Shown here: positions 3,001-64,000 of the stretch, one piece after another | How the letters are laid out: each line of letters starts with the position of its first letter | Position numbering within the stretch: the first letter of the stretch is position 1 | DNA from: Stegostoma tigrinum | Lineage: Eukaryota | Assembly: GCF_030684315.1 (NCBI RefSeq) | Contig: NC_081356.1 | Coordinates: 46,382,393-46,446,392 of the forward strand | Length of the DNA: 64,000 nucleotides | Direction of reading: 5' to 3' | Made by a program: the position numbers and the translations under genes | The notes under the pieces: model-generated | Seen by the model: the letters and a program-made list of their open reading frames with translations, nothing else | What the model was told of the DNA's origin: nothing | Databases searched by the model: none

Positions 3001-3247
3001 GGGGTGAAAGATATAGGACAGATGTCAGAGGTAGTTTCTTTACTCAGATAGTAGTAAGTGAATGGAACGCTTTGCCTGCAATGGTAGTAGATTCGCCAAC
3101 TTTAGGTACATTTAAGTCGTCATTGGACAAGCATATGGACGTACATGGAATAGTGTAGGTTAGATGGGCTTGAGATCGGTATGACAGGTCGGCACAACAT
3201 CGAGGGCCGAAGGGACTGTACTGTGCTGTAATGTTCTATGTTCTATG
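1..3247 (+). mobile_element. CR1-clade LINE, young but disabled (APE endonuclease + RT ORF2, 3' UTR, (TTCTATG)n tail); 5' part extends beyond window
   Basis: Translation gives APE motifs ([34 protein letters not shown]) and RT motifs ([34 protein letters not shown]). In-frame stops at 194-196 (ISETW -> IS*TW) and 2138-2140. Ends TGTTCTATGTTCTATG at about 3247. Confidence 0.97.
2359..2684 (-). repeat. Inverted duplication of CR1 segment 1571-1896 embedded in the same CR1
   Basis: 2359-2684 is the reverse complement of 1571-1896 (ORF 2352..2720 - reproduces the RT peptide), with 2-nt microhomologies AG and GG at the junctions. Confidence 0.95.
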
Positions 3248-5590: not shown

Positions 5591-6819
5591 GGTAGATCTT
5601 GCTTTTAATTGACTACCCTCTGCACAAATAGCAATTGACAATAAATATTGGCCTAGCCAGTAATGTACACATTTGAAATTCTAGGTGATTCAAGTCCATA
5701 TTTATCTTTATTATGGGTGATGTTTATTGTACTCTCAGTATTATCTTTTTCATACCCCTACATAATAATTTGTCTATCTGAAATTTGACATTAATCTTCC
5801 TTACATTTCAATCTTTGTCGTTTGTATATTTTCAAATTATAACGAAAGTTCAGAGCTTCAATAAAGTGGCATACATGATAGTAATTCCTATCAAAAAGTA
5901 ATGGAGAAACAGGAAAATGTCCATAACAGTTTCTTCAGAGTTTCTATCAAATGTCTTACATAAACTTCTCAAAAAAATGACAGAAATTCCATTATATATG
6001 TACGTGGGTTTCTTCCATGTAACCAGTGAAGTTGGCACACCCATGAAAAAAGACAGGTTAATAAAAATAGGGTGACAAATGGGGAGAAATGTCCTGAGCT
6101 ACTCTGATCTCTAAAGTAGTTGCTGTGGAATCTGAAGCAGATTCAATACTTACAATGGAGACGTGTAAAAAGAGCAGAGTAGACCATTTGGACACTTGAG
6201 CTGTTCAATAACATCAGGATAATCTGTCTTGTGAGAAGACAAACTTATACGAAAAAGCCAAATTTAGAAGATTGAAAAGAGAGAGCAGATGAGTTGAATA
6301 ATTGGGATGTCTTACACATGATTTGAAGGACTCCTGTCTGTGCTGTATTATTGTATGATCCCAAATGAAGTGGCGACTAACAAGTGAAATACTCACTACA
6401 CCTAATTATTCCTGATGAATCTTGTCAGCCTTAGTTCTATCCCTATTCACCGTTCTCTTCCTCCCCTTTGCAGAATTTACTCAGCCTTCATCCATTGAAG
6501 CTGACATTGAATTCTTGCAATGGCTGAGCTTATCTGTTTCAATGAAATTTGGGCCTCCATTATCAGGCGCAGACATGGTACCCCCTATCCATTTACCATG
6601 TACCACATCCTAAAAGAATAACAAGACTGTTCCACCTTTTCCTGGGAAGCTGAGTCTTTAGCCTTATCCTTTTCTCAATTGACAGAATGAAAATTCCCAT
6701 GAATTTTGATGATTTGAATCAGTGGTTTTTGACCTGATGACTTTTGTTGGTACCTTGAAGTAAAGGGGAAAATAATGTCATGGTGACTATGTTGATGTAC
6801 CAAAATTCCTAAGACTCAG

Positions 6820-7170: not shown

Positions 7171-7199
7171 AATCTTCCTCAAATTCTAAGTACCTTTAA

Positions 7200-7595
7200 C
7201 CTCAGGGTTGTTAGGGAGTTCCAGGATTGTGACTCAGCAACACTGAGGGAACAGTGATATATTTCCAAGTCAGGATAGCGTGTGCCTTAGAGGGGTAATT
7301 GCAAGTGCTGGTGATGTTCAAATGTATCTGCTGCTTTTGTCCCTATATATGGTAGAGGCTGTGGATTTGGAAGGTATTGCTGATGGAGCCATAATCAGTT
7401 ACTGCTGAGGCTTTTATTGATGATACACACTGTTGCTGCTATGAACTGGTGGAAGTAGGAGTGTTTGTTAAAGTGTGTGAATGGAGTGAAAACCAAGTTG
7501 GTTGTTTTGTCCTGAGCAATGTCAAGCTTCTTAAGTGTTGTTGGAGTCAGACTCATCCAGGCACATGGGGTTTATTCCATCAGATTCCTGACTTG
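7200..7595 (-). mobile_element. 3' region of the CR1/L2-group ORF1-less LINE family (same family as 35855-39605)
   Basis: Reverse strand reads ...SFSVA.S..WNSL-like; same sequence as 42860-43140 and 51890-52050. Confidence 0.7.
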
Positions 7596-8360
7596 CCAAC
7601 AGCCATTTTACAAACACACTTCCCAATAACGGTGCCAGCATCAACATCACAACCTCAACACCTCACATACACCATGTAACTATGAAGCCTGGCATAGCAG
7701 AATTACCTATTAAGGAGAGACCAATGAAACTGAAAGGAGAAATTGAACTATCAGAGAAACACTCACCATTTAAAACTGAGCTGATGAGAAACTTGAGTCG
7801 TGAATTGCCAGAATTCCTGAACCCAAAGAGTTCAAGATAGAAATTAATAGATTTCTGAATACTAATGATATCAATTGAAATGGATATAGATTAAGAAAGT
7901 GACATCTAGGTAGATGATCAACCATGATTAAAATAGCAAAGCAACCTCAATGGGTTGAATAGTCTATTACTATTTCTATGGTTCTATACCTTGATATTCT
8001 CACAATACAAAATATTCCATGTGCTACTCATGCATCAGAAACTGCTTTAAACTTTTCAACCACAACCACATCTGCAAATACATTCATTCACACTTATCAC
8101 TTTCCCTTGCAAGATAAGATAACATGTTGTGGTTAGTCATCAGCAGGATATAAGAATGGCTATGAAGCATAAGTTCACTCTTCCAAAGAGTTGTCAATGG
8201 TGACTGTGAGAGCAGTAGTAGAATCTATGGACACAGGCAGAGGACGGGCATATGGCCACTCTAGCTTCCTTATTTATCCACAAAAAGAATCCTGATCCCT
8301 GATCTCAAACCATCTGGTCACTCTCAAGCCCACATGGTCTTTTCACACATATCTTCTAAC

Positions 8361-12875: not shown

Positions 12876-13420
12876 AAACTAAATTATGTCATCAGTCTCA
12901 AAATTGGCATCTCAATTGGGGAAAATAAACATTTTATCCTCTTTTGTGCAATATCCAGTTTACCAAAGGACTGGATCAAAAAGTGAGTTTCCTTTGTATT
13001 TCACAGTCATCAGCAAAGAAAGGGTGTGCTTGCTGTTAGTCTACAACATGCTTTCAATGGTACTGGGTCTTTTCACAGCAAACTGCTGTTAATCATTGAA
13101 AACCATAAAACCTTTGGTTAATGTCTAGTTGTTTTTTGTGATGTGGAAAGTGAGATGACTCTCAATGCCCTTGCAGTTTCACCTATCCCACTATGGAATT
13201 TGCGGAATGTGTCAGTGAACTCCACGCACACACTTTTTTTTCTTTTGCGCATTTCAAGACTTTCTTGGCTTTAGCTGCTAGTGTTCAATGGCACTTTATT
13301 TTGTTTGAAGCCAAAAAATTAGCAAGAGTCTGCCAAGGATGCCCAATATTTCAAACACAGTTTTACTTCAAATGAGTCTCTTTTTCACATTTTCCATCCA
13401 TCACAAAATAACACATAATA

Positions 13421-13718
13421 GCCTCATCCCACGGCCTTGACTTGTCCGTCCTCCCTGGACTAACCTATTCCCTCCCTAACTCCCCACCTACACTCACCTT
13501 TACTGGGTCCATCCCTGCCCCTTTGACCTGTCAGTCTCCTCTCCACCTATCCTCTCCTTTATCCATCTTCTATCTGCCTCCCTCTTTCTCCCTATTTATT
13601 TCAGAATCCCCTTTCCCTCCCCCATTTCTGAAGAAGGGCCTAGGCCCAAACCGTCAGCTTTCCTGCTCCTCTGATGCTGCTTGGCCTGCTGTGTTCACCC
13701 AGCTTTACACCTTGTTAT
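13421..13718 (+). mobile_element. Solo Penelope pseudo-LTR with 9-bp TSD (CACATAATA)
   Basis: C/T-rich pLTR matching 32620-32920; degenerate hammerhead core CTGAAGA..GGGCCTAGGCCC at 13628; CACATAATA at 13412-13420 and 13719-13727. Confidence 0.85.
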
Positions 13719-13807
13719 CACATAATACCAGCTGTAGTATTCTACTCCTCTCATTTATACTTAGCCCAAATTTGTAACTATTTTAGTGTAACTGTTTTGT
13801 ATTCAAT

Positions 13808-20739: not shown

Positions 20740-23314
20740 ATATTGTTGGTGTAATAATTGTTGTCCACATTGATACCAGTGACACTGGTAGGCCCAGAAA
20801 GGAAGTTTTACTGAAAGTCTTTTAAGACTTCAGAGCCAAGTTCAGGAGGTAATAATCTCTGGATTGCTATACGAGCCATGGGCAAACTGATACAGGGGAA
20901 ATAAATTAAAGGAGTTAAGTGGCTCAACGATTAGTGTTGGAGAAATGGGCTTCAGTTTCTGTAGCTCTTACACTAGTACTGGGTTAGAAGTGAACTGAAC
21001 TAGTGGGATGGGCTTCACTTGAGCTATGCTGTGTTTATGTCCTGGAAAATTGAATAACTAGAACTGTTAAGACGGCTTGAAAATAACTGGGGGCAGAAGA
21101 AGGTTGGGAGAGAGCAAATATAGATGACAAAGCAAGAGGATACGGCTGAATTAAAGGCCAGTTACTTGAATAACGATACCCATTGTGGGAAATGAAAGGA
21201 CAGAGGAAAGAAACAGAAAAATAATAGTAATTAGAGCTAAAAAGGGGAAATAATGGTAAAAAGGCAAAATGAATGGATCTTCACTTGAATGCACATAGGA
21301 TTTGGAACAAAACAAATGAATTAATGAAAAAAACACAGGTTAATGATCTTATAGCCATTACATTGACATGAAAGGATATCAAAGCTGGGAGTTAAATATT
21401 CAGAAGGGAGATGCAGATTCCATAAGGGTGGAGGTGAGAAATAACAAAGGCAAGGAGAAACTTGTGGAAATAACTACTGATAGTGGGCTATAGACTATTT
21501 AATGAGACAGAGTGTAAAACAGAATATAATGAAGGTATGTATCAATGGCAGTACTTTAATCAATGGTGACATTAATGTTTATGTAGATTGGGATATTCAG
21601 GTTGGCAAAGGAAGGCATGAAGAAGAATTGACAGGTCTAATTTCGGACAGTTTCCTAAAAAAATATATATGTTGAGGCTCCAACTAGGGAGCAGGTGATT
21701 TCAGATCTGGTGTTGTGTAATGAGTTAAGTTTAACAAATGATATAAAAGTAGAAGGTGCTCTTAGAAACAGTGACCATAGCGTAATAGAATTTAGCAATC
21801 AGTTGAGATAGAAGAACTTGGGTCAGAAATAACCGCTCACCTTAAGTCAAGGTAATAACAAAGGAACAGGGACCTAACTGGCTGGAGTAGTCTGGGGAAG
21901 GAGTTTAGCAGCAAAACAAGGTGGAAGACAAGGAACAATGTCAGTCATTTTAAAAAGGGAAGCGATGGATGTAATATTTGAATATTCAGAAGGCTTTTGA
22001 AAATGTGCCACACATTAATCTTCTTAACAATATAATAACTCACAGTGTTGGAGGTAGCATATTATCATAGATTGAATATTGGCTAACTAATAGAAGACAG
22101 CTGGAATAAGGATGCATTTTCAGGCTGACAACCGTGTACCTAACGGTGTGCCACAGGAATTAGTGCTGTGACCACAATTATTAACATTATATATATATAG
22201 TTGGTTTGAAGAAGAAAATTGAATGTACTATAGGAAAGTTTGTAGATGTCAAAAAAATAGATGGGAAGGCAAATGGTGAGGCTGGCTCAGAGTTTGCGGA
22301 ATAGAGGAGCTGAATATTATTTTAATGAAGGAACATTAAGGATTTGGCAGCCTTTGTCCATGAAGCACAAAATGTCAGCATCTATGTTCAGTGGGTCATA
22401 TGGATTGTTGGCTTTTATTACAAGTGGAATGGAGCAAAAAAGTAGGGAAGTTTTGCTAAAACTATATAAGACACTAGTTCAGACCAAAGCTGGAAAACTG
22501 AGAACCGTTTGACATCCCTGACCTAAGCACAGATATTGGAGGCATTCCAGGGAAAATTGATTTGGCTGATACCAAGCGGGAAGGGACTGTCTTATCAGGG
22601 GAGGTTGAGTTGACTGGGCCTGCACTTGTTGGAATTTATAAGAATGACAGATGACCTTACCGAAACATACAAGATTCTTAGGGACTTAACAGTGTAGAAA
22701 TGGAAAGGTTGTTTCCCCTTGTGGAAGAGTTTAGGACCAGAAGTTATAATCTCAGAGTAAGAGATCAACTAGTTAAGACATAGATGAGGAGTCTTGTTTT
22801 TATCTCAGAGGGTTGTTGAGGCTGGGTCATTAAGTATGTTCAAGGCTCAGATCGGTAGGTTTTTAATCATTAAAGAAATCAAGAATTTTGGGGAAAAGGC
22901 AGGAAAATGGAGTTGGGATTTGTAGATTAGCCAAGCTCTCATTAAATAGTGAAGCAGACTCGATAGGCTGAATGGCCTACTTTTGCTCCTCTGTCTTATG
23001 ATCTTATGGAATGAGGGAAGAATCTCATAGAAACTTATAAAATGTTAACAGGGCAAGACAAAGCAAATGCAGAAAGGATGTTTCCAATTGGGGAATTCAG
23101 AACCAGGTGTCAAAGGCTAAAGATATTGATTAAGCCATTAGGACTGAGATAAGGGTAAATTTCTTTACAGAGTAGTAAGCTTTTGGAATTATTTGCCATA
23201 GAAAGTGATGGAGGGTAAAAGATTCAAAGTCTTCAAGAAGACATTATGTCAGCCATGATCATATTGAATGGTAGCATCGGCTCAAAGGGTCAAATGGCCT
23301 ATTGCTTCTCCTAT
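20740..23314 (+). mobile_element. Old CR1 LINE (ORF1 esterase end, deleted ORF2, 3' UTR) plus a second CR1 3' fragment
   Basis: VVHI.TSD.GR, VIISGLL (ORF1 SGNH esterase); LGNSDH, KAF..VPH, GVPQ.LVL, KF.D (ORF2); 3' tails at about 23005 and 23314/24660. Confidence 0.8.
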
Positions 23315-24630
23315 GAGAGATAATGGGAACTGCAGATGCTGGAGATTCCAAGATGATAAAATGTGAGGCTGGATGAACACAGCAGGCCAAGCAGCATCTC
23401 AGGAGCACAAAAGCTGACGTTTCGGGCCTGGACCCTTCATCAGAGAGGGGGATGGGGGGAGGGAACTGGAATAAATAGGGAGAGAGGGGGAGGCGGACCG
23501 AAGATGGAGAGCAAAGAAGATAGGTGGAGAGGGTGTAGGTGGGGAGGTAGGGAGGGGATAGGTCAGTCCAGGGAAGACGGACAGGTCAAGGAGGTGGGAT
23601 GAGGTTAGTAGGTAGCTGGGGGTGCGGCTGGGGGTGGGAGGAAGGGATGGGTGAGAGGAAGAACCGGTTAGGGAGGCAGAGACAGGTTGGACTGGTTTTG
23701 GGATGCAGTGGGTGGGGGGGAAGAGCTGGGCTGGTTGTGTGGTGCAGTGGGGGGAGGGGATGAACTGGGCTGGTTTAGGGATGCAGTGGGGGAAGGGGAG
23801 ATTTTGAAACTGGTGAAGTCCACATTGATACCATATGGCTGCAGGGTTCCCAGGCGGAATATGAGTTGCTGTTCCTGCAACCTTCGGGTGGCATCATTGT
23901 GGCAGTGCAGGAGGCCCATGATGGACATGTCCATTGGGGAAACCAAGCGGAGGCTTGGGGACCGCTTTGCAGAACACCTCCGCTCAGTTCGCAACAAACA
24001 ACTGCACCTCCCAGTCGCAAACCATTTCCACTCCCCCTCCCATTCTCTTGATGACATGTCCATCATGGGCCTCCTGCACTGCCACAATGATGCCACCCGA
24101 AGGTTGCAGGAACAGCAACTCATATTCCGCCTGGGAACCCTGCAGCCATATGGTATCAATGTGGACTTCACCAGTTTCAAAATCTCCCCTTCCCCCACTG
24201 CATCCCTAAACCAGCCCAGTTCATCCCCTCCCCCCACTGCACCACACAACCAGCCCAGCTCTTCCCCCCCACCCACTGCATCCCAAAACCAGTCCAACCT
24301 GTCTCTGCCTCCCTAACCGGTTCTTCCTCTCACCCATCCCTTCCTCCCACCCCCAGCCGCACCCCCAGCTACCTACTAACCTCATCCCACCTCCTTGACC
24401 TGTCCGTCTTCCCTGGACTGACCTATCCCCTCCCTACCTCCCCACCTACACCCTCTCCACCTATCTTCTTTGCTCTCCATCTTCGGTCCGCCTCCCCCTC
24501 TCTCCCTATTTATTCCAGTTCCCTCCCCCCATCCCCCTCTCTGATGAAGGGTCCAGGCCCGAAACGTCAGCTTTTGTGCTCCTGAGATGCTGCTTGGCCT
24601 GCTGTGTTCATCCAGCCTCACATTTTATCA
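23315..24630. mobile_element. Penelope-like element, head-to-head inverted insertion (578-bp arms, 121-bp spacer) with 15-bp TSD
   Basis: Arms 23354-23931 and 24053-24630 mirror each other (mirror ORFs translate identically). GIY-YIG C-terminus IGETKRRLGDRFAEH...EQQLIFRLGTLQPYGIN. TSD TATTGCTTCTCCTAT at 23300-23314 and 24631-24645. Confidence 0.95.
24541..24570 (+). ncRNA. Minimal type-I hammerhead ribozyme motif in Penelope pLTR (mirror copy 23414-23443 on -)
   Basis: CTGATGA-AGGGTCCAGGCCC-GAAAC-GTC: intact core, GGG/CCC stem II, palindromic ACGT at helix III. Stem I is short. Activity untested. Confidence 0.65.
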
Positions 24631-24899
24631 TATTGCTTCTCCTATTTTCTGTTTCTGTGTTTTTATCTCTTCTGATGTAACAAACTGCTTTTCTGGCTTG
24701 GTCAAATTGCTTTTCAAGCTAACGGCAATTTTGAATTCAGATAACCTGATCAGGATGGACAATTAGTTTATTAAATTCTTTATTCAATTTAAATTGCAGC
24801 CCACAACCACCGCCCCTTCATCACCCGATCCACCCAGCCCCTAACCCCAACTTGCCCCAACACCCTAAGTTTGGGTTTGTCAGACAGGGGAAATCAAAT

Positions 24900-25987: not shown

Positions 25988-27960
25988 CATAAGAAACAGA
26001 ACAGGAATAGGCCATTTGGCACTTTGAGCCTACTTGGCAATTCAATAGAATCGTGACTGATTTGACTGTCCTGACTTGCACATTACTTCGTTTTCCACAT
26101 AAAACTTGGTTTACCCTACTGATCAAGATTCCATCTCTCTAATCATAAATATACACAAGGACTCTGCTCCATAGCTTTCTGTGTCAAGAAGTTTCAAAGA
26201 TTTACAACCCTCTGAGAAAAGAAATTCTTCCTCATCTTAAATTGGAACACTTTAATTCCGAGGCCATGCCCTCTAATCTTGGATAAGAGATAATGGGAAT
26301 TGCAGATGCTGGAGAATCCAAGATAATAAAGTGTGAAGCTGGATGAACATAGCAGGCCAAGCAGCATCTCAGGAGCACAAAAGCTGATGTTTCGGGCCTA
26401 GACCCTTCATCAGAGAGGGGGATGGGGAGAGGGTTCTGAAATAAATAGGGAGAGAGGGGGAGGCGGACCGAAGATAGATGGGGAGGTGGAGAGGGGATAG
26501 GTCAGTTTGAGGAGGACGGACAGGTCAAGGAGGCGGTATGAGGTTAGTAGGTGGGAAATGGAGGTGTGGCTTGAGGTGGGAGGAGGTGATAGGTGAGATG
26601 AAGAAAAGATTAGGGAGGCGGTGACGAGCGGGGCTGGTTTTGGGATGCAGTGGGGGAAGGGGAGATTTCGAAGCTTGTGAAGTCCACATTGATACCATTG
26701 GGCTGCAGGGTTCCCAAGCGGAAAATGGGTTGCTGCTCCTGCAACCTTCAGGTGGCATCACTGTGGCACTGCAGGAGGCCAGGATGGACATGTCGTCTAA
26801 GGAATGGGAGGGGCAGTTAAAATAGTTTGCGACTGGGAGGTGCAGTTGTTTGTTGCGAACCGAGTGGAGGTGTTCAGCAAAGCGGTCCCCAAGCCTCCGC
26901 TTGGTTTCCCCAATGTAGAGAAAGCCACAATGGGTACAGTGGATACAGTATACCACATTAGCAGATGTGCAGGTGAATATCTCCTTAATATGGAAAGTCA
27001 TCTTGGGGCCTGGGATGTGGATGAGGGAGGAGGTGTGGTGTCAAGTGTAGCACTTCCTGCGGTTGCAGGGGAAGGTACCAGGTGTGGTTGGGTTGGACAG
27101 AAGTGTGGAGAGGACAAGGGAGTCACGGAGAGAGTGGTCTCTCCGGAAGGCAGGCAAGGGTGGAGATGGAAAAATGCCTTGGGTAGTGGGGTCAGATTGT
27201 AGATGGCGCAAGTGTCGGAGGATGATGCGTTGTATCCGGAGATTGGTGGGGTGGTATGTGAGGACGATGGGGATTCTCTTTTGGCGGATATTGTGGGGGT
27301 GGGGTGTGAGGGATGTGTTGTGGGAAATGCGGGAGACACGGTCAAGTGCATTCTCGGCCACTGCGGGGGGGTAGTTGCGGTCCTAGAAGAAAGTGGACAT
27401 CTGGGATGTGCTTGAGTGGAATGCCTCATCCTGGGAGCAGATGCGGCAGAGGCAAACAAATTGGGAATAGGGGATGGAATCCCTAACCTCATCCTGCCTC
27501 CTTGACGTGTCCGTCCTCCCCGGACTGACCTATCCCCTCTCCACCTCCCCACCTAAACTCTCCTCTCCATCTATCTTCTCCTCTATCCATCCTCGGTCCG
27601 CCTCCCCCTCTCTCCCTATTTATTTCAGAACCCTCTCCCCATCCCCGTCTCTGATGAAGGGTCTAGCCCGAAACGTCAGCTTTTGTGCTCCTGGGATGCT
27701 GCTTGGCCTGCTGTGTTCATCCAGCTTCACACTTTGTTACCTTTGATCTTGGACTCTCCCATGAGGGGAAACGTCTAATCAGCATTTACCCTGTTGAGCT
27801 CCTTTAGAATCATTTATTCCTCAATGAGATCACCTCTCATGCTCCTCAACTCCAAAGAGTAGAGTTCTAAACTGTTTAACCTTTGCTCATAAGGCAGTCC
27901 TTCCATACCATGGATCATCCTAGTGAAACTTCTTTGAGCTTCCTCTAATGAAGTGGTCTC
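25988..27960 (-). mobile_element. CR1 3' part (25988-26285 and 27743-27960) split by a Penelope insertion
   Basis: CR1 3' UTR and ORF2 end continue collinearly on both sides of the Penelope. Confidence 0.75.
26286..27742 (-). mobile_element. Penelope-like element: long - arm (RT C-terminus, GIY-YIG, full pLTR) plus short inverted pLTR (27481-27742)
   Basis: FTCTSANVVYCIHCTHCGFLYIGETKRRLGDRFAEH; RIPIVLTYHP. Hammerhead motifs at 26384-26413 (-) and 27651-27679 (+). ATCTTGGA duplicated at 26276 and 27746. Confidence 0.93.
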
Positions 27961-29392: not shown

Positions 29393-29610
29393 AAAGAAAA
29401 ACCAAAAGAACTGCAGTTGCTGTAAATCAGAAACAAAAACAGAAGTTCCTGGAAAAGCTTAGCAGGTGTGGCAGCATCTGTGAAATAAATATCAGAGTTA
29501 ACGTTTCAGGTACGAACTCTGGAGAAAATATCAGAGTTAACGTTTCGGGCCTGGATCTCTGATTTTTTCTTCACAGACCTGCTGAGCTTTTCCAGCAACT
29601 CTCTTTTTCT
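29393..29610. mobile_element. Mini palindromic Penelope-derived element with imperfect 14-bp TSD
   Basis: Inverted arms (GGAAAAGCTTAGCAGG / CCTGCTGAGCTTTTCCAGC); TSD TCCTTGGAAATAAT (29379) / TCCTTAGAAGTAAT (29611); internal tandem duplication of TATCAGAGTTAACGTTTC. Confidence 0.8.
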
Positions 29611-30070: not shown

Positions 30071-30294
30071 ATAAGAACCAAAAGAACTGTGGATGCTGTA
30101 AATCAAGAACAAAAACAAAGCTCAGCAGGTCTGGCAACATCTGTGGAGGAGAAGACAGAGTTAATGTTTCAGGTCCGGTGACCCTTCCTCAGAACAGTTC
30201 TGAGGAAGGGTCACCAGAAACGAAACTTTAACTCTGTTTTCCCCTCCACAGATGCTGCCAAACCTGCTGAACTTTTCCAGCAACTTTGTTTTTG
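30071..30294. mobile_element. Mini palindromic Penelope-derived element with back-to-back hammerhead motifs and 14-bp TSD
   Basis: Centre GGTGACCCTTCCTCAGAAC-A-GTTCTGAGGAAGGGTCACC; CTGAGGA...GAAAC core on each strand (each with a lesion); TSD CTCGGGATGCCTAT (30057) / CTCAGGATGCCTAT (30295). Confidence 0.88.
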
Positions 30295-30726
30295 CTCAGG
30301 ATGCCTATGTTTGCAACACTGGGCAAAGACGGTTGTTGGTAATTAGGATCCCTTTAAAACTGAAGTTCCTGTGCAGCATTAGATTTCATTTAACTGCTGT
30401 TACAGCTTTCAAAGCTTCTCATAAATAAAGAAAAAAGGAAGGCACAAGAAATATAAAAAAATGAAGATAGAAATAGGATGAGATATTCAACCCTCCACTA
30501 CTCTTTATGACCATGGCTAATTATCGAGCTCAATTCCTTAATTCCGCCCAGCCACCATATTCCTCAATCCCTTTGATCAAAAGAGCTCGATCTACCTCTT
30601 TAAAACACAGAATGTTTTGTCCTCAACCACTTTACTTGGTAGTGAATTCCACAGGCCCACTATTCTCTAAATGAAGAAATTTCTCATCTCAGCCCCAAAA
30701 GGTTTACACATTATTCTTAAGCTATC

Positions 30727-31248
30727 AGAGATAATGGGAGCTGCACATGTTGGAGAATCTGAGATAACAAAGTGTGGAGCTGGATGAACACAGCAGGCCA
30801 AGCAGCACCTTAGGACCACAAAAGCTGATGTTTTGGGCCGAGACCCTTCATCAGAAAAGGCGGATGGGGAGAGGGTTCTGAAATAAATAGGGAGAGAGGG
30901 GAAGGCGGATTAAAGGTGGATAGAGGAGAAGATAGGTGGAGAGGAGAGTATAGGTGGGGAGGTAGGGAGGGGATAGGTCAGTTCAGGGAGGATGGACTGG
31001 CCAAGGGGGCGGGATGAGGTTAGTAGGTGGGAAGTGGAGGTGCAGCTTGAGGTGGGAGGAGGGGATAGGTGAGAGAAAGAACAGGTTAGAGGGGCGGGAA
31101 AGAGCTGGGCTGGTCTTGGGATGCAGTGAGGGGGAGGGAAGATTTTGAAGCTTGTGAAATCCACATTGATATCATTGGGCTACAGGGTTCCCAAGAGGAA
31201 TGTGAGTTGCTGTTCCTGCAACCCTCGGGTGGCATCATTGTGGCACTT
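30727..31248 (-). mobile_element. 5'-truncated Penelope (GIY-YIG C-terminus + full pLTR)
   Basis: Same pLTR as 23315; AAGCTATC repeated at both flanks. Confidence 0.88.
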
Positions 31249-31613
31249 AAGCGACTCAAGCTATCATTCCGGTTCGAGACATCTCCATGATAGGGAACAT
31301 TCTTCCCTCATCGAAACTGTCCGGTCCTGTTATAATTGTGTAGGGTTCTATGGGAGCCCTCCTCATTCTTCTAAACTCAAATGTATGTAGTGCTAACTGG
31401 CTTAATCGCTTCTCATATGTCAATCGTGCCATACCAGGAATTAACTTGATAAAGATTTGCCACGTTCCCTTTATAAGAAAAACATTCTTTCTCAGGTAAA
31501 GAGACCAAAACTGCACCTAATATACTATGAGCGGCCTCACCAGTGCATAATTACAGCAAGACATCTCGTTCCTGTACTAAGATCCTCTCACAATGCAAGC
31601 CAGCATACAGTTT

Positions 31614-32964
31614 AGAGATAACAAAGTGTGGAGCTGGATGAACACAGCAGGCCAAGCAGCACCTCCTCCTACCCACCTTCCCGCAAAAAATCCATCCCCT
31701 ATTCCTAATTCCTGCACCTCTACGGCATCTGCTCCCAGGATCAGGCATTCCACTCCCGTAGATCCCAGATGTCTTCGTTCTTCAAGGACTGCAACTTCCC
31801 CCCGCAGTGGTTGAGAACGCCCTCGACCGTGTCTCCTGCATTTCCCATAACTCATCCCTCACACCCCAGCCCCGCAATAACCGCCAAAAGAGAATCCCCA
31901 TCATCCTCACATACCACCCCACCAACCTCCAAATATAACGCATCATCCTCTGACACTTCCGCTACCTACGATCTGACCCACCACCGAAGACATTTTTCCA
32001 TCGTCACCCTTGTCTGCCTTCCGGAAAGACCACTCTCTCCGGGACTCCCTTGTCCGCTCCACACTCCTGTCCAACCCTACCACACCCGGCACTTTTCCCT
32101 GCAACCGCAGGAAGTGCTACACTTGTCCCCACACATCCTCCCTCACTCACATCCCAGGTCCCAAAATGACATACCACATCAAGTAGATGTTCACCTGCAC
32201 ATCTGCCAATGTGGTATACTGCATCCGCTGCACCCATTGTGTCTTCGTCTACATTGGGGAAACCAAGCAGAGGCTTGTGGACGGCTTTGCAGAACAACTT
32301 ATACTTGGTTTGCAACAAACAACTGCACCTCCCAGTCGTGAACCATTTCAACTCCCACTCCCATTCCTTAGACGACATGTCCATCCTGGGCCTCCTGCGG
32401 TGCCACAACAATGCCACCCGAAGGTTGCAGGAACAGCAACTCATATTCCACCTGGGAACCCTGCAGCCCAATGGTATCAATGTGGATTTCACAAGCTTCA
32501 AAATCTCTCCTCCCTCCCCCCACTGCATCCCAAAACCAGCCCAGCTCGGCCCCGGCTCCCTAACCTATTCTTCCTCTCACCTATCCCCTCCTCCCACCTC
32601 AAGCCGCACCACCATTTCCTACCTCCTAACCTCATCCCATCCCCTTGACCTGTCCATCCTCCCCAGACTGACCCATCTCCTCCCTACCTCCCCACCTATT
32701 CTCACATGTACAGGCTCCATGCCCGCCCCTTTAACTTGTCTGTCTCCTCTCCACCTATCTTCTCCTCTATCCACATTCGATCCGCCTCCCCCTCTCTCCC
32801 AATTTATTTCAGAACCCTCTCCCCACCCGTCTTTTCTGATGAAGGGTCTAGGTCCGAAACATCAGCTTTTGTGGTCCTAAGATGCTGCTTGGCCTGCTGT
32901 GTTCATCCAGCTCCACACTTTGTTTTGTTGGATTCTCCAGCATCTGCAGTTCCCATTATCTCCC
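31614..32964 (+). mobile_element. Penelope-like element: short inverted pLTR piece (31614-31662) plus RT C-terminus, GIY-YIG and full pLTR; 14-bp TSD
   Basis: FTCTSANVVYCIRCTHCVFVYIGETKQRL...EQQLIFHLGTLQPNGIN; hammerhead motif at 32836; TSD CCAGCATACAGTTT / CCAACATACAGTTT. Confidence 0.92.
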
Positions 32965-35690: not shown

Positions 35691-36110
35691 ATTTGTTTCC
35701 TCATTGGTGTTGTGGTCTCAGGGACAGCTTTTGGCAGAGGCGTCATTTCAGGTCCATTCGGCAGCAGCAGGAATTGCTTCAGCATGCTTCCTCTTTGGCG
35801 TTGCAGCCTCAGGGACAGCTTTAGCGGTCAAACTACACAATGATACCAATCTTTATCCAGGATAGTGTCAAACATCTTGAGTGTATTCAGAGCCGCACCC
35901 ATTCAGGCAAGTACAAATATTCTATCACACTCCTGATTTGTAGCTGGAAAGAGACACCGGGAAGATTAGATGCCAATTACTCCCGACAGGTTTCCCAACT
36001 TCTTACCTGCTCTTGAAACCACACTATTAATTTGGCTGGCCCAGTTAAGTTTCTGGTTTATGGTAACCCCTGGACTGTTGATAGCAGATGATTAAATGAT
36101 AATGTTGAAT

Positions 36111-36410
36111 CATAGAATCCCTACAGTGTGAAAACAGGCCCTTCAGCTCATACCGACCGTCAGAGCATCCCACCCGGACCGATTCCCCTATAACCCACCT
36201 AATCTAAATATACCTGAACACCACGGGAATTTGGCATGGCCAATCCACCTAACCTTTGGCATGTGGGAGGAAAACTGGAGCACTTGGAGAAAGCCCACGC
36301 AGATATGAGAAGAACGTGCAAACTCCACACAGTCATCCGAGGGTGGAATCGAACCTGGGTCCCTGGCACTGTGAGGGAGCAGTGCTAACCACTGAGCCAC
36401 CATGCCACCC
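36111..36410 (-). mobile_element. HE1-type tRNA-derived V-SINE
   Basis: GGTGGCTCAGTGGTTAGCACT...GGTTCGATTCC head, TGTGTGGAGTTTGCACGTTCT V-domain, CR1-like tail. Confidence 0.9.
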
Positions 36411-37289
36411 ATATTGCTGTCAAATATCAAGTGGAGGCTGTTCCATTCTTTGGAATCATTCTTCAGTCTTTTCCTAGCACTTATATGGTACTTACCAGCT
36501 CAAGCCTGAGTATTGTCAAGGTTTTGCTGCATTTAGAAATGGACTGCTTCATTATCTGAGGATCTATGAATGGCGCTTAACATTATGCAATCATCAGCGA
36601 ACATCTGACTTAAAAGAATCCATGATGAAGGGAAGTCCTTGATGATGTATGTGAAGATGGTTGAACCTAAGACACTACCCCACGGAACTCCTGCATAGCT
36701 GTCCTGGAGATGAGATGACTGACCTCCAAAAACCACCACTATCTTCCTTGGGTCATGTATGGCTCCAACCACCAGAGAGTTTGCCCCCTGATACCCATTT
36801 ATTCCAGTTTTGCTGGGGCTCCTTGATGCCACACCCAGTTGAATGCAGCCTTGATGTCAAGAGCTGGCACTTTCACCTCACCTCTGGAATTCAGCTCTTT
36901 TGTCATGCTTGAACCAAGACTGTAATGAGACCAGGAGCTGAGTGGCCCTGGTGGAACCCAAACTGGGCATCACTGAGCGGGTGCCACTTGATAGCACTGT
37001 TGATGATACCTTTCATCACTTTACTGATGATCAAGAGTTCACTGATGGGGTGGTAATTGACCAAGTTGGATTTGTCCTGCCTTTTCTGTACAGGACAGAC
37101 TTTGGCAATTTTCCATATTGTTGGGCAAATACCAGTGTTGGAACTCTACTGGAACAACTTGGCTGCTGGGACAACAGGTTCTGGAGCATATTGCTGGAAT
37201 GTTGTCAGGGCCCATAGCCTTTGCAGTATCCAGTGTCTCCAACCATTTTTATCACATAGAGTACATTGAATAAGCTAAAGACTGGTATC

Positions 37290-37614
37290 TGTAATCATAC
37301 AATCCCTACAGCATGGGAACAAGCCATTTGGTCCAACAAGTCCACACTGCCCCTCCGAAGAGCATCGTACACAGGCCAATTCCCCTACCCCTGTATTTCC
37401 CAAATGTAATCCACCTAACCTAAACATCCCTGGGTAGTATGGACAATTTAAGCATGGCCAATCCACCTAACCTGCACATCTTTGCACTGTGGGAAGAAAC
37501 CCACACAGACATGGGAAGAATGTGCAAACTCCACACAGTCGCCTGAGGTTGGAATCGAACCCAGGTCCCTGGCACTGTGAGGCAGCAATGTTAACCATTG
37601 AGCCACCATGCCAT
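37290..37614 (-). mobile_element. HE1-type tRNA-derived V-SINE
   Basis: Same head, V-domain and tail as 36111. Confidence 0.9.
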
Positions 37615-38216
37615 CCATTGATTCCTGGGGAATGCTGGGGGCCACTGGAGGAGGCCAAGATTGATCATCTACTTGGCACTTCTGGCTGAAGATTGCTAAG
37701 AAAGCCTTATCTTTTGCACTGATCTGCTGGCCTCTTCCATCATTAAGGATGGGGATATTTGTGGAGCTTCCTCCTCCAATGAGTTGTTTAATTGTCCACC
37801 ATCTTTCAAGACTGATGTGACAGGACTGCAGAGCTTACATTTGATCTGTTGTTTGTGGGACCACTTAGTGCTGTCTATCATTTGCTGCTTCTGCTGTTTG
37901 GTGTGAAAGTAGTCCTGTCTGGTGGCTTCACCAGTTTGATATCTCATCTTCAGTTATGCCTGGTGCTGCTTCAGGCACACCCTTGTGCATTCTCCATTAA
38001 ACCAGGGTTGATCCCCTAGCTTGATGGTAATGGTTGAGCAGGGGATATGCCAACCCATGAAGTTACAGATTGTGCTAGAGTAAATTTTTGCTGCTGTTGA
38101 TGGCCCATGGTGCTTCATATTTGCATAGTGTTGAGTCGCTAGATCTGTGCAAAGCCTGTCCCATGTAGCACAGTGATAGTGCCACACAACACAATGGAGG
38201 TTATTCTCAATGTAAA

Positions 38217-38579
38217 GGGGAGGCGATGACCTAGTGGTATTATCACTGGACTGTTAATCCAGAGACCCAGACAATGTTCTAGGGACCAGAGTTCCTATCC
38301 TGCCATGGCAGAAGGCGGCATTTGATTTCAATAAATATCTGGAATTAAGAGTCTAATACTGACCATAAATCCATTGCTGAATGTTGGGAAAAACCCATCT
38401 GGTTCACTAATGTCCTTTAGGGAAGGAAACTGCCATCCTTACCTGCTCTGGTCTACATGTGACTCCAGACCCACAGCAATGTGGTTGACTCTTAACTGCC
38501 CTCTTGGCAATTTGTGTTGGGCAATAAATGCTGCCTTGCCAGTGATGCCCTCATCCTATGAATGAATAAAGAAATAAAA
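38217..38579 (+). mobile_element. tRNA-headed SINE equal to the 5' head/body plus 3' tail of the ORF1-less LINE
   Basis: A-box TGACCTAGTGG; body CCCATCTGGTTCACTAATGTCCTTTAGGGAAGG...GTTGACTCTTAACTGCCC shared with 39320-39605 (-); tail GGGCAATAAATGCTG...ATGAATGAATAAA shared with 42860-42920 (-). Confidence 0.88.
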
Positions 38580-39609
38580 TTGCAGAACTTCATCTCCACA
38601 AGAACAATGCGGTGGTCACTCTTACCAATACTGTCATGGACAGATGCAACTGCAGCTGGTAGATTGGTAAGGGTGTTTTTTTCTCTCTTGTTTTTATCCC
38701 TCACCCATCTGCTGCAGACACATTCTAGCAGCTATGTCCTTTTGAACCTGAACAGTTCAATCAGTAGTACTGCTACTGAGACACTCTTGGTGTTGGACAA
38801 TGAAATCTCCCACCCAAAGTACATATTGTGCCCTTGCCATTGTCAGTACTTTCGCCAACTGTTGCTCAATATGGAGGATTACTGATTCAATAGCTGAGGG
38901 AGGATGGTGTATGATAATCAGCAGGACATTCCCTTGTCCAAACTTCATGGATCTAGAGTCAATGTTGAGGACTCCCAGAGCAGCTTCTTCTCAACTGAAT
39001 ACCACCATGCTGTCACCTCTGTTGGGTCTATTCTGTTGGTGAGACAGGACATATCCAGAGATAGTGTTGCTGGTGTATGTGACATTGTCTTTAAGGTAGT
39101 ATTCTATAAGTATGATTATGTCAGACTGTTGCTTAACTGGTCTGTGAGACAGCTCTCCTAATTTTGGCACTAGCCTTGGGGTATTAGTGACGAGGAATTT
39201 TCAGGCTCAACAGCGTTGTTTCTGCTGTTGTCTTTTCTGGTGCATAGGTCAATGCCAGGCGATCTGTCTGGTTTAATTTCTTTCAGACTTTGTAGGAATC
39301 GATAAAATTGAATGGCTTTCAGGGGGCAATTAAGAGTCAACCACATTGCTGTGGGTTTAGAGTCACAAGTAGGCCAGACCAGGTGAGGATGGCAGATTTC
39401 CTTCCCTGAAGGACATTAGTAAACCAGATGGGTTTTTCCTGACAATTGACATGATTTCATGGTGATTAGTCGACTTTTAATTACAGATTATTTGTATTGA
39501 ATTCAAATCCCATCATCTTCCGAAGCGGGATTTGAACCCAGGTCCCCAGAACATTTGCTGAGTTTCTGGATTAATTGTCTAGCAATAATACCAATAGCCT
39601 ATCCCTGAT

Positions 39610-41402: not shown

Positions 41403-42420
41403 CATAGAACATAGAACATAGAACATTACAGCACAGTACAGTCCCTTCGGCCGTTGATGTTGTGCCGACCCGTCATACCAATCTCAAGCCCATCTAACCT
41501 ACACTATTCCATGTACGTCCATATGCTTGTCCAATGACGACTTAAATGTACTTAAAGTTGGCGAATCTACTACCATTGCAGGCAAAGCGTTCCATTCCCT
41601 TACTACTCTCTGAGTAGAGAAACCACCTCTGACATCTGTCCTATATCTTTCACCCCTCAATTTAAAGCTATGGCCCCTCGAGCTCGCCGTCACCATCCTA
41701 GGAAAAAGGCTCTCCCTATCCACCCTATCTAACCCTCTGATTATTTTATATGTTTCAATTAAGTCACCTCTCAACCTTCTTCTCTCTAATGAAAACAGCC
41801 TCAAGTCCCTCAGCCTTTCCTCGTACGACCTTCCCTCCATACCAGGCAACATCCTAGTAAATCTCCTCTGCACCCTTTCCAAAGCTTCCACATCCTTCTT
41901 ATAATGCGGTGACCAGAACTGTACACAATACTCCAAGTGCGGCCGCACCAGAGTTTTGTACAGCTTCACCATAACCTCTTGGTTCCGGAACTCGATCCCT
42001 CTATTAATAAAAGCTAAAACAATGTATGCCTTCTTAACAGCCCTGTCAACCTGGGTGGAAACTTTCAAGGATCTGTGTACATGGACACTGAGATCTCTCT
42101 GCTCATCTACACTACTAAGAATCTTTCCATTAGCCCAGTACTTTGTCTTCCGGTTACTCCTACCAAAGTGCATCACCTCACACTTGTCTGCATTAAACTC
42201 CATTTGCCACCTCTCAGCCCAGCTCTGCAGCTTATCTATGTCTCTTTGCAACCTACAGCATCCTTCGTCACTATCCACAACTCCACCAACCTTAGTGTCG
42301 TCTGCAAATTTGCTAACCCATCCTTCTACGCCCTCATCCAGGTCATTTATAAAAATGACAAACAGCAGGGGACCCAACACCGACCCTTGCGGTACACCAC
42401 TAGTAACTGGTCTCCAGTAC
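41403..42420 (-). mobile_element. Young 5'-truncated CR1 with uninterrupted 293-aa ORF2 C-terminus and 8-bp TSD
   Basis: ORF 41499..42380; (TTCTATG)n tail; TAAAAGTA at 41395-41402 and 42421-42428; same subfamily as 1-3247. Confidence 0.95.
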
Positions 42421-42859
42421 TAAAAGTAGATTATGATTGTTTCTGCCAGAGCAAAATGAAAGCTGGAAGGACTTTGATATCTCCTGAGCTGAATTGAAAA
42501 CTGGAGTATGTGTTAAAGTGGGGGCCTTCCATCAGTTCAGGTGATTGGTTAATTTGACAATTTCAGATTGGTTAATCAAAAGTAATCAGCCCAAACAAAG
42601 AGAACTTTTCGGTTGGCCAAATTTTAGTTTAGGAAGTTGACAGGAATGACAGTAAGAAAAGGGACATTGTAACTAATTTTCTTGACACTTAAATTTTGGG
42701 TTGCACACTGAAAAGTGGGATTGTTGCTCAAAAGAAATTTTAAAAAAGCATGAGCCTTAATTTTTGTCATTTATCTTTATGTAAAGAAGAGTACAGGACA
42801 AATCCAGAAGATCTGTGTAGAAGATTACACAGGGCAGAATCAGCAGCGTATGTTCTACC

Positions 42860-43140
42860 ATTTATATTCTTCCTGGGTCTGAGGATTGATGGCTAGACCA
42901 GTATTTATTGCCTTTTTTTTGTCCTTGAGAAACTTGTGAGCTGCCTTCTGAACTACTGCAATCCACTTGTTGTAGATAGGTCCAGAATAAGATTAGGGAG
43001 GGAGTCCTGGGATTCTGACTCAGTGCCATTGAAGAAAACATTATATATTTCCAACTCAGCATGGTGAGTGGCTTAGAGGGGTTTTAGTTTTTCTCCCACC
43101 TATCTGCTGCCTTGTCCTTCAGGATCACTGTGGTAATGGA
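42860..43140 (-). mobile_element. 3' end of the ORF1-less LINE family
   Basis: ORF end (..KAAH..LK) followed by the GGCAATAAATACTGGTCTAGCC tail. Confidence 0.75.
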
Positions 43141-53169: not shown

Positions 53170-53462
53170 CATTACATCACAGTACAGGCCATTCGATCAA
53201 ACTGCTCAGCATACCCTACATTTTACTATCTTCCATGAGCACATCCAAGAGTTCCTTAAAAGTCTCTAAAGTATCTGACTCCACTACCACTGCCAGCAGC
53301 GCAATCCACAGGCCCACCACTCTCTGTGTAAAGAACCTACCTCTGACATCTCCCCTATACCTTCCTCCAATCACCTTTAAATTATGTTCCCTCGTAATAG
53401 TCATTTCTGCCCTGGGAAAAAAAGTGTCTGATTATCCACTGTATCTATATCTATCATCATCT
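53170..53462 (-). mobile_element. CR1 3' fragment
   Basis: TREHNLKVIGGRYRGDVRGRFFTQRVVGLW. Confidence 0.85.
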
Positions 53463-53467
53463 TGTAA

Positions 53468-54985
53468 TGTTCCATGGTGAATCCCACCATGGCAGATGGT
53501 GATATTTTAATTCACTGAAAATAAGTTAAAATTTAATGGTGGCTATTTAACTGCTGTTGATTGAGAAGGAAATCTACCATTCTTACCTGGTTTGACCTAC
53601 ATGCAACTCCAGACCATAGAGCAATGTGGCTAGTTATTGACCACTCTCTGAAGTTCCTAGAGAGCCACTGAGTTGTATCAAACTGCAACAAAGCCTAAAG
53701 AAAAGAATGAGGACAGGCCTACCACCTAGCATTAATCTAGGCACCAAAAAAGATGAGTAAATACAACCCTGTCAATCCTGTAAAGTCCTCCTTATTAACA
53801 ACTTATGACGAAATGTGGAGAGCAACAGCCTGATATAGTCACAATCTGGAAGTCACAAGGGGTGACACAGTGGCACAGTGGTTAGCGGTTAGCACTGCTG
53901 CCTCACAGCACCAGGAAACTGGTATCGATTCCACCCTCAGGTAACTGTGTGGAGTTTGCACATTCTCCCTGTATTTGCGTGGGTTTCCTTCGGGTGCTCC
54001 GGCTTCCTCCTACAGTCCAAAGATGTGCAGGCTAGGTGGAATGGATTGGCCATGCTAAATTCCCTGTAGCATTCAGGGATGTGTAGATTAGGTGGGTTAT
54101 TGGGGAATGGATCTGAGTAGGATGCTCTGAAGGTCAGTGTGGACTTGTTGGGCCAAAAGGCCTGTTTCAGCACTGTAGGGATTCTATGATTCATTAAGTC
54201 TTACCTGAAGAAACCAGTCCCATCAGAAGGTGTGGCATATATTCTGAAGATGTACTTTGATCTGTGACATTAACTTTGAACAGCATGATGTTTCATGGCA
54301 TTAGGTCAAATATGGACAAAGAATCTTCCTGCTGATTACTTCTACCAAACCACCATCACCCCTTCAAGCTGGTGAATCTGTGCTTCTTCAAGTTGAACAC
54401 CATTTGGAGGATGCATTCAGGATCTAAGTGCACAGAATGTATTCCGAATAGAGTCATAAATGTCAATCATCAACAGTAGCTCAGTAAAACTAAATGAGCT
54501 AGCCCATTCACAAAGAACATAGTTGCTTGGCTGTGAGTGCGTGTGGCAGGCAGTGAGGGAACTAACATGGAAGGAAAGCTTACTTCACTTCATCCTAATT
54601 GATCTACCTGAAATAAATGAGTCCTTTCATGATAGTTTTGGCAAGAGTGAGCACTGCATGGAGTCCTATCTTCACATTTTTTCTATTTGTTTGCATGATG
54701 CAAGCATTATTGGCTAGCCAACATTTATTATCCATTCTTACTACCCTCGAGAAAGCACTTGTGAGCTGCCAATCTATACTGAAGATGCCCTCCACCATGT
54801 TGTATGGCACTGTCACTGTGTAAATGAGAGAGACTATGAATAGATCCAGCAATTCAAAACTGACCATCCATGACATACTGTGGGCCGTCAGCAAATGCAG
54901 AGTTGCATTAAACCACAACCAATAGCAACATGACCCACTATATCTCCTGCTGTACTATAACCATCAAGCGATGGGATTATGCAAA
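53468..54985 (+). mobile_element. Second copy of the tRNA-headed ORF1-less LINE (5' part), interrupted by an HE1 SINE and an inverted 3' tail piece (54680-54790)
   Basis: AATCCCACCATGGCAGATGG...GGAAATCT..CTTACCTGG...GCAATGTGG body runs into CCTGTAAAGTCCTCCTTATTAAC...CAACAGCCTGATATAGTC (APE start), then ESVLLQVEHHLEDA. Confidence 0.75.
53859..54192 (+). mobile_element. HE1-type V-SINE
   Basis: GTGGCACAGTGGTTAGC head, V-domain, GGGATTCTATGATTC tail. Confidence 0.9.
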
Positions 54986-56732: not shown

Positions 56733-57651
56733 TGGTCAAACATTTCATCTAAAACTTTGACAATAACTCTGTCACTGATTAGATTTTCTTTTAAGCTGCC
56801 ATACTCTTATTCTCTGTAAGTCTAGAGACAAATGTTAAAAGTATCAATTCTTACCCCTATTGCTCAGCATGCTGATTAAATTTAGCCTGCTCCACTTTTT
56901 TTTTCTTACAGGTTGAAATTGGCATAATGTGCTGCCAGACCTGCTGAGCTTTTCCAGCAACTTCTGTTTTTAATGCCACCAGGCTGTTGTTTTGCCACAT
57001 AATATTCTTGGCCTTGTTATGCTGCTGAAGCATTTTTTAAAGCACCTGATGAGGTAACGAAAACGTTAACTTTATTTGAGAAGCATTTTACTGTTGTGTC
57101 ATTTTGCCATGAAGTTACACAAGACAAAATGAGCACGTTGCAGTGCATCACTCCCTAATCTGATGTAAACTGCATAATTAACATATAAGAATTTCAGACA
57201 TAACTCTTGAACAACCTGCTTTTAATAATATAAACACATATACCTCTACATCCCTATGTTCCAGCCAATTCCTTTAGAATAGCGTCAGTTCTTTAAAATC
57301 GCGTGTCTTTGTTACGCCCACCAAAACACATCAATTGCCATATCTGCATTAAATTTCATCTGCCAAGTGTCTAGCAACTCCACCAGCCTGCCTATGCCCT
57401 TTGAAGTTTACGACTATCCTCACAATTCACAATACTTCCAACTTTCGTGCATTCCACACATTTTGAAATTGTGAACTTTAACAGGGATGACAAAATGTAT
57501 TAATCTTAATATGTTAGGTAATTATTATCTGTATGTCTGAAAACTGAAAAGACTTTTAAAAATCAAAGGTCTTTTGAAAGAGGACCTGATCAGATTTGTG
57601 GACAAGCTAAGTTCTTCATCTGAAGGAACCAAAAATGCAAAGTTTTACTTT

Positions 57652-60391: not shown

Positions 60392-60555
60392 ATTTTTATT
60401 TCTTCATTCTTTTATTAAATTGGGTATGCAAGTACTTTCAACCACCCTTAATTGCCCCTGAACTGATCCACTGACATTTCAAAGGACACTTAAGAGCCAA
60501 CCCCTTGCTGTTGGCCTCACTCCTATGCATCATGTTAGTTAAAATGGTCTGATAA
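60392..60555 (-). mobile_element. Decayed copy of the 38217-type SINE (body-to-tail junction)
   Basis: CCCTTAATTGCCCCTGAACTGA...TTAAGAGCCAACC..TTGCTG. Confidence 0.55.
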
Positions 60556-61964: not shown

Positions 61965-62480
61965 ATAAAAGAAAAATACCAAAGATGCTGGAGATCTGAA
62001 ATAAAAACACAACATCTCAGCATGTGTAAGAGAGAAAAAAGTTAGAAGTTGAGTCGAAAATTTCTTCTATAGATGAGTTATATTGGCCACAAACTAGAGC
62101 ACCTCGTAGCAACCCACAAAGATACAGGGAGAATATGCAAACTCAGCCCAGACAGTCACCCAAGACTGGAATCAGACCAGGTTCCTGACACTGTGAGGCA
62201 GCAATGTTAACCACTGTGCGACCATGCCTCCCAAAGAAGTCAGTTACAGATTGAGTGATCAGTTTACTGAAGCTGCATCCAGCATCCACGAGCACAGTCC
62301 CAGAGCTTTTGAGTGCTTACCATTTTAATTTCTCATCCCAGTCCCATTCTACCCTTGATTTTTAATAAGTTTTATATGAACATTAGCAGAAACAGACATT
62401 ATCATCTTAACATTTAGTTCAGCAATTCATAACCTTCTGAATTCAATCTTGACTTCAAAAATTTCAGATCTCATTTGTTC
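61965..62480. mobile_element. Decayed Penelope (inverted pLTR end + GIY-YIG C-terminus) with HE1 SINE fragment (62090-62231, -)
   Basis: AGATGCTGGAGATCTGAAATAAAAAC; HFN..S.SH, ...NLDFKNFR-like; SINE head CACTGTGAGGCAGCAATGTTAACCACTG. Confidence 0.55.
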
Positions 62481-63166: not shown

Positions 63167-63519
63167 GTACATACTGCTGTGAGATAAATAACTGAACAAA
63201 GCTTTTACTCTTCAGAAAGGCATTGCCAAGAACCTATACCTTCCTCCTGTTTCTTTCTTATTTCTCCATACATCTTCTCAACCCCATCTTGTTTGTGCTG
63301 CTGATCTCTTCACTGTATAGTCATTGAGTATATAAGTGTGTTCAGATGAGAGCGATAACTGAGATTCACTTGTGCACATGGGGATTTATAATGGGTATCT
63401 TTGTGGAATAAAAAGAAGTGTGCAATCAATAAGCTACCTTTCACTGCCATCTGGACTAAAACGTAAGCAGCAGCTTTCTCTAGTTATTCTAATGCTGTGG
63501 CATTGGATAAAGCAAAAGC

Positions 63520-64000
63520 AACATTCCAGCAAAACATTAAGGCTCATGCTTTAGAACTAGGCAAGGTGTCCCAATCCAGCTACAACACTAGCATATACAT
63601 GATAATGTGAAAAATTATTCGGATATGTTGAGTTCACAAGATGACAAGTTGAGTTGGCGACCTACTAACGCATCAGTGTGCTTGAGGTCAATAATAAAGT
63701 GATGGAAGTTATAATCAACACTGGTATCAAGTGGTAGTTTATCAACAATAAACTGCTCACTAATATCCAGTTGTGGGTTCCACCAAATCCACTCAGCTCC
63801 TGACCTTATTACAGCCTTGTTTCAAACATAGAGAAAACAACTGAACTCCAGAGGTGAGTTGACAGTATCACCTCTTGACACCAAGACAGCATTTGACCAA
63901 ATACAGCATCAAAGAGCCCTAGCAACAATGGAGGAAATGGGAATTAGTCAGAAATCTCTCTGCTGTTTGGAGGCCATTGATTACAGTGGAAGATAGCGTT
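63520..64000 (+). mobile_element. RT region of the ORF1-less LINE family (continues beyond window)
   Basis: QSSYNTSIY...GFHQIHSAPDLITALFQT...LNSRGE...LDTKTAFD...HQRALA.MEEMGI. Confidence 0.8.

Follow-up and report, generated by a model that had tools for sequence, protein, structure and literature searches.

SINEs possess heads that serve as Pol III (RNA polymerase III) promoters, as well as 3' tails that are recognised by the reverse transcriptase (RT) of a LINE (PMC4824008). The current model of how they gain head and body combines a deletion with the separate capture of a head from a small RNA. The sources of bipartite elements named by Kojima (2018) were RTE, Ingi, Vingi and R2, the head being added later (PMC5786205). 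A sequence-only reading of the DNA analysed here had regarded RTE and Vingi as the clades best known for derivatives composed of a 5' and a 3' part, a list that omits Zenon itself, represented by Persaeus (PMC6740152). Persaeus was excluded from the SINEs by its authors for want of a Pol III promoter or tRNA homology (PMC6740152).

Zenon LINEs without ORF1 have been described from elasmobranchs, the coelacanth and hagfish (PMC13343379, published in 2026), and those of elasmobranchs are, according to that paper, absent from repeat repositories. According to its Table S3, three elasmobranch Zenon families have 612, 1419 and 2313 copies that are near-full. Zenon-masked DNA amounts to 6.75% in the whale shark, 6.77% in the white shark and 0.75% in the little skate; the values for Callorhinchus and Latimeria are 0.018% (179 kb) and 0.056% (1.6 Mb), respectively. 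In the accessible text of the paper the words tRNA, promoter and polymerase do not occur, and SINE occurs once, in the reference list.

The DNA studied here (the window) is a stretch of 64,000 nucleotides from Stegostoma tigrinum. Table 1 lists the features discussed below. One of them, an insert in a decayed LINE, is a real feature and belongs to a high-copy SINE family.

Table 1. Features of the window; Zenon, SINE and promoter-box assignments are predictions from sequence comparison
Feature	Position	Strand	Remarks
SINE copy, short-junction form	38218..38581	+	antisense in LINE-A; target duplication 0-1 nt
tRNA-like head of the SINE	38217..38310	+	A-box-like 38227-38237; decayed B box 38290-38300
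SINE body	38311..38504	+	identical in kind to remainder of Zenon 5' leader
SINE tail	38505..38581	+	last LINE ORF codons, 3' UTR and A-rich end
LINE-A, decayed Zenon LINE	35852..39605	-	head, endonuclease and RT, without ORF1; 3' truncated; three SINE inserts
LINE-A 5' head and body	39306..39605	-	B box intact, 39538-39528; 11 nt deleted near 39316
LINE-B, second, more decayed copy	53460..54977	+	head remnant, body, same body-to-endonuclease junction
LINE fragment, 5'-truncated	54678..54775	-	ORF end and tail; antisense in LINE-B
LINE fragment, 5'-truncated	42855..43100	-	ends in tail
Fragment E	7190..7600	-	links LINE-A 3' end (60/90 nt, 0/300 shuffles as good) to fragment D (76%, 84 nt)
Fragment C	63510..64000	+	RT part of Zenon family
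SINE copy, 5'-truncated, decayed, long-junction form	60392..60520	-	shuffles as good: body 0/1000, tail 2/1000
Tail-like fragment, junction not established	5605..5670	+	shuffles as good: tail 3/1000, body 139/1000

The insert and the two ends of a LINE

In four runs, 5, 4, 7 and 0 contigs join 38217 directly to 38582; these represent the empty site and fix the length of the insert at 364 nt, which corrects the extent of 38217 to 38579 proposed from the sequence alone. The first 288 nt of the SINE resemble the 5' end of LINE-A at a level of 80%. Over 278 columns, positions 38231-38504 were 80.2% identical to 39597-39321 read as reverse complement (E 1e-63), bearing out the claim that 38217-38504 corresponds to the head and body of the LINE (reverse complement of 39320-39605), and in a global alignment of the two 5' parts 230 of 293 columns were identical.

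The remainder of the insert resembles the 3' end of the LINE. The segment 38505-38579 matched the minus strand of 54660-54800 at 43 of 62 positions, with none of 1000 shuffles as good, and that of 42830-43100 at 37 of 51 positions (1 of 1000). It matched neither the 3' end of the CR1 of the window (970 of 1000 shuffles as good) nor another SINE of the window (669 of 1000). The tail begins among the final codons of the LINE ORF and is therefore LINE-derived. The switch to a LINE tail at 38504 thus withstood the shuffle test, but the tails at 42860 and 54680, which had been thought to follow the ORF of the LINE, proved to lie on separate 5'-truncated fragments. The more general claim that a single LINE family accounts, with its two ends, for the entire SINE stood up well: no SINE segment foreign to these ends was found, and the tail, far from coming from a different LINE family, could be chained to the host LINE via overlapping fragments. 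Being multi-copy, non-coding, provided with a tRNA-like head and LINE-derived in its tail, the element has the structural properties of a tRNA-derived SINE (SINE2); with all its sequence accounted for by the 5' and 3' ends of a LINE, it also has those of a bipartite derivative.

The head was annotated with A- and B-box patterns. The B-box pattern is exact in LINE-A and carries two mismatches in the SINE copy. A stem of 5 bp (38246-38250/38258-38262) encloses a 7-nt loop. ARAGORN found no tRNA, and Rfam gave no tRNA match. Among the SINE head, three tails and the LINE-A head, only the last folded better than shuffled sequences (z -2.45); the SINE head and the three tails showed no significant structure.

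The host LINE and its relationship to Zenon

LINE-A is interrupted by stops and frameshifts and has lost its own 3' end. It has a single endonuclease-RT ORF and offers no room for ORF1, the homology to endonucleases starting ~110-130 nt past the body shared with the SINE. Its linker piece is 58-69% identical to proteins that include Rhincodon and Heterodontus records, and its RT-proximal piece showed 42-48% identity to two single-ORF relatives and 37% to the CR1 of the window in pairwise comparisons. An intact single endonuclease-RT ORF of 983 aa (P0020, on contigs of 3.6-3.8 kb) was among the closest non-shark relatives found. In the body, an ATG opens a frame with two stops (39346-39150, minus strand) that enters the endonuclease region in a frame unlike that of the endonuclease.

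The transition from body to endonuclease recurs in LINE-B, with matches at 97 of 142 positions beyond the body and at 44 of 67 in the head, none of 1000 shuffles being as good in either case. A contig from another organism (X19 record 23) bridges the body-to-endonuclease junction at 39217-39415, and in three other runs 11-29 contigs extend 19-29 nt beyond the point at which SINE and LINE branch. A chance adjacency of SINE and LINE, or an assembly artefact, is ruled out by LINE-B, by this contig and by the seven published consensuses considered below.

The 3' end of the LINE had to be pieced together: LINE-A overlaps fragment E, E overlaps fragment D, and D ends in the tail. The chained pieces sum to 3189 nt, compared with 3244-3314 characters in five of seven published Zenon consensuses. 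Tails in the window end in short A-rich runs, and LINE-A is without an end of its own. Pfam gave nothing meaningful with three decayed LINE pieces. Neither the endonuclease piece nor fragment E found a match in word-based searches of proteins, so that no link to the tail could be made at the protein level. Metagenome, viral and prokaryote collections, scanned with the body motif and with protein, likewise gave no match, nor did a phage scan.

Comparison with PMC13343379 indicates that the host LINE is an elasmobranch Zenon, a member of the CR1 group. Among the 1,003 elements of its Table S2, each represented by the first 400 nt, the body motif occurs in seven consensuses. These are exactly the elasmobranch Zenons, from five species (CarCar, RhiTyp, ScyCan, SquAca and HypSab_Zenon). 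All seven shark and ray consensuses start at the 5' end of the SINE and continue into the leader of LINE-A; by eye, and within these 400 nt, it is the whale-shark consensus that LINE-A resembles most. The body and head motif was not found in the first 400 nt of the two hagfish and one coelacanth Zenon consensuses, and a perfect B box, searched in six variants in Table S2, was matched only in three elasmobranch Zenons. The consensuses were compared by eye within their first 400 nt, and the link of the tail to Zenon rests on the chain of decayed fragments.

This relationship bears on whether the insert might simply be SacSINE1, a known SINE with a Deu domain, in which case the LINE would carry a Deu domain. 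SacSINE1 is indeed a tRNA-headed shark SINE and is present in the whale shark and skate (PMC5499810). Its tail, however, has been assigned to L2-2_CM and its copies reach 463 nt, whereas the SINE described here measures 364 to ~390 nt and has a Zenon tail; this tail chains, through fragments of the window, to the end of the Zenon ORF and on that basis is not of the L2 type. In Callorhinchus, 218,294 copies of SacSINE1-CM (PMC5499810) stand against no more than 179 kb masked as Zenon, an argument which assumes that one masking library was used for all species, as a turtle row suggests. Judged by Zenon-masked DNA (179 kb and 1.6 Mb), our SINE is abundant in neither Callorhinchus nor Latimeria. 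Deu, Meta, V and UCON3 motifs matched at chance level, and the three bivalve Deu motifs among them did not match; the test is weak and of low power, as the V motifs also missed likely V-type SINEs. Identity with SacSINE1 is therefore very hard to credit.

The LINE starts at the tRNA-like head, with nothing upstream. Its sense strand is depleted in runs of at least four T: five pooled copies (4893 nt) have 7 where 14.7 would be expected (P 0.011). The controls, A-runs (32, expectation 33.7) and the T-runs of CR1 (11, expectation 9.8), were about as frequent as expected. Because the LINE starts at the head, because LINE-A has an exact B box and because T-runs are depleted, we tentatively suggest that the LINE itself may most simply be transcribed by Pol III from its own head, a reading to which we would not yet commit ourselves. 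The seven T-runs that are present speak against it, as they would stop the polymerase if original. Translation of an uncapped Pol III RNA would also have to follow an unusual route. Should the LINE RNA be a product of Pol III, it would be a rare instance of a coding RNA made by that polymerase.

Other repeats surround these elements. A second tRNA-headed SINE family, which we take to be probably the V-type HE1 SINE, is found at 37293-37618, 36106-36412, 53870-54193 and 62097-62228; the copies are 70-80% alike and three of them lie inside Zenon copies. Fairly young canonical CR1 copies (197-3247 and 41410-42419) are 94-96% alike, and the first contains an inverted duplication (1571-1896 versus 2684-2359, 99%). 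Related coding repeats are clustered at 23311-24642, 26283-27747, 30722-32962 and 13412-13723; their translations look Penelope-like. One of them has a 583-nt inverted duplication of 99.8% identity (23349-23931 versus 24635-24053). A short repeat at 30073-30294 forms an inverted pair around 30140 and has related copies at 29397-29514 and 56930-56971. Finally, independent antisense inserts of the tail family lie in LINE-A (38218-38581) and LINE-B (54678-54775) within ~9 nt of the equivalent place. It lies between endonuclease and RT and may be preferred for insertion, although there are only two cases and they were noticed afterwards.

Junction forms and direction of descent

Two SINE junctions, both multi-copy, were found in contigs of four organisms. 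Loose ends behind 38504 were carried by 1600, 2302, 1784 and 281 contigs in four runs and those behind 38512 by 993, 1034, 989 and 133, depths that do not equal copy numbers and were not taken for them. The consensus of the 38504 ends continues with ~27 further nt of LINE before it enters the tail; its agreement of 0.49-0.54 is low because LINE-type ends are mixed in. That the short junction is multi-copy follows from the 38512 ends together with two X12 contigs that span 38391-38574 across it. The junction at 38504 is the shorter of the two, and the long form retains ~27 nt more of the 5' part of the LINE. The single breakpoint seen by the sequence-only reading could thus be placed and takes two forms, each with microhomology of ~1 nt as judged by eye. 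As to the further junction copies which that reading had listed, body and tail are both supported for the one at 60392, but at 5605-5670 support extends to the tail and not to the body.

Diagnostic sites in the head bear on the direction of descent. They were scored by eye on one decayed SINE copy, 38245 and 38371 being dropped as CpG-prone or gap-adjacent. At six sites (38231, 38242, 38254, 38277, 38349 and 38388) the SINE shares the state of the whale-shark Zenon as opposed to white shark and catshark, and LINE-A carries five of these six states. At five others (38248, 38264, 38361, 38418 and 38440) LINE-A agrees with the whale shark, and the SINE has the state of white shark and catshark. 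The sites nest as (white shark, catshark), then SINE, then (LINE-A, whale shark). This pattern favours a position of the SINE head inside the carpet-shark branch of Zenon heads, in a subfamily older than the host copy. The description of the host as the SINE's own parent consequently holds at the level of the family but not for the host copy, which differs at the five younger-subfamily sites.

The nesting would be uninformative on origin if recombination or gene conversion had homogenised the heads of SINE and LINE. The intermediate position of the SINE head between the consensuses would agree with such an exchange, as would the lack of one of the six common states in LINE-A. However, the sites show clean nesting (5 of 5 and 5 of 6) and no patchiness along the head, and we regard homogenisation as highly improbable. 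Deletion from LINE to SINE is favoured because the SINE head tracks carpet-shark LINE states, and the short-junction form cannot have donated the head to the LINE because it is without 27 nt present in the LINE. Most likely, on these sequence data, the SINE subfamily originated through a deletion in a carpet-shark Zenon and was later inserted into a younger relative. Both this direction and the reverse, a recombination of the SINE with an ORF, had been offered by the earlier reading; the six and five diagnostic sites give better support to loss of the ORF from the LINE.

It might be argued that a tRNA SINE came first, gained a Zenon tail and passed on head and body to the LINE by template switching, the long-junction SINE then being donor and not product. 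This form could indeed predate the headed LINE, and there is good documentation of modules being exchanged among SINEs and LINEs (PMC4824008, PMC11481361). Moreover, one coelacanth and two hagfish Zenons are without the head motif in their first 400 nt, so the LINE must have gained its head at some point. Such a mosaic origin nevertheless leaves the carpet-shark-specific LINE-head states in the SINE head unexplained. Given the low Zenon masking of Callorhinchus (0.018%) and Latimeria (0.056%) compared with the whale shark (6.75%), there is also no sign of an abundant LINE-free relative of the head in these two outgroups. On balance we think this course of events unlikely. The simplest guess for the head of the LINE is that an elasmobranch ancestor captured it from a tRNA or from a tRNA SINE.

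We consider it probable that the SINE is a Zenon LINE minus its middle part of ~2.9 kb, born by deletion from a carpet-shark Zenon and mobile since. The starting point would be the elasmobranch Zenon, a 3.3-kb LINE without ORF1 whose 5' leader opens with a tRNA-like head containing A and B boxes. Removal of the ~2.9 kb would have joined the promoter head and leader to the last ORF codons and the 3' tail. It was probably brought about by a jump of the RT on its own template or by a deletion at the DNA level, leaving ~1 nt of microhomology; the near absence of microhomology at either junction counts against such a step. Established SINE-LINE biology suggests that the product, retaining promoter and RT-recognised tail, would have been a working SINE at once, and because it already held both, a separate capture of a head would be unnecessary. 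The two junction forms may go back to two deletions, or to one deletion followed by the loss of ~27 nt. The subfamily derived from the carpet-shark Zenon lineage would then have stayed mobile until one copy entered a younger Zenon copy.

Comparison with described elements

Our literature search found no description of this SINE or of a tRNA head on the LINE; Repbase, Dfam and subscription papers may hold one. The elasmobranch Zenon LINEs of PMC13343379 resemble LINE-A in having the same 5' sequence running into the endonuclease leader, in being without ORF1 and in their length of ~3.3 kb; the accessible text differs from the present account in describing no SINE derived from Zenon. This unnamed SINE is probably counted within the Zenon coverage reported for shark genomes. 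As several species each have near-full copies of the LINE in the hundreds to thousands, the birth of the SINE can be dated and placed in order by trees.

Like the SINE described here, SacSINE1 and the Deu-SINEs (PMC5499810) include a tRNA-headed, high-copy shark SINE mobilised by a LINE of the CR1 group, but they have an L2-type tail and a Deu body and are abundant in chimaera and coelacanth. Zenon 3' tails are found on the ZenoSINEs of heliconiine butterflies (PMC6685494) and on bivalve SINEs (PMC11481361); in contrast to the present case, the tail alone is common to these SINEs and the LINE.

Persaeus is closer in composition. It too is a derivative of 5' and 3' parts of Zenon, in this case the Zenon of Lepidoptera, is ~350 nt long, includes the ORF's end and occurs in high copy number (PMC6740152). 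It is without tRNA homology or a Pol III promoter, however, whereas here the 5' end of the LINE is itself tRNA-like. In the bipartite SINEs of RTE and Vingi, such as Bov-tA and CoeSINE4 (PMC5786205), body and tail likewise go back to the partner LINE, to its 5' and 3' parts. In Kojima's model the LINE is transcribed by Pol II and the tRNA head is added by a later template switch (PMC5786205). Unlike that model, head, body and tail of the SINE described here all lie within the LINE; one LINE that holds all three modules would offer a one-step route to the origin of a SINE.
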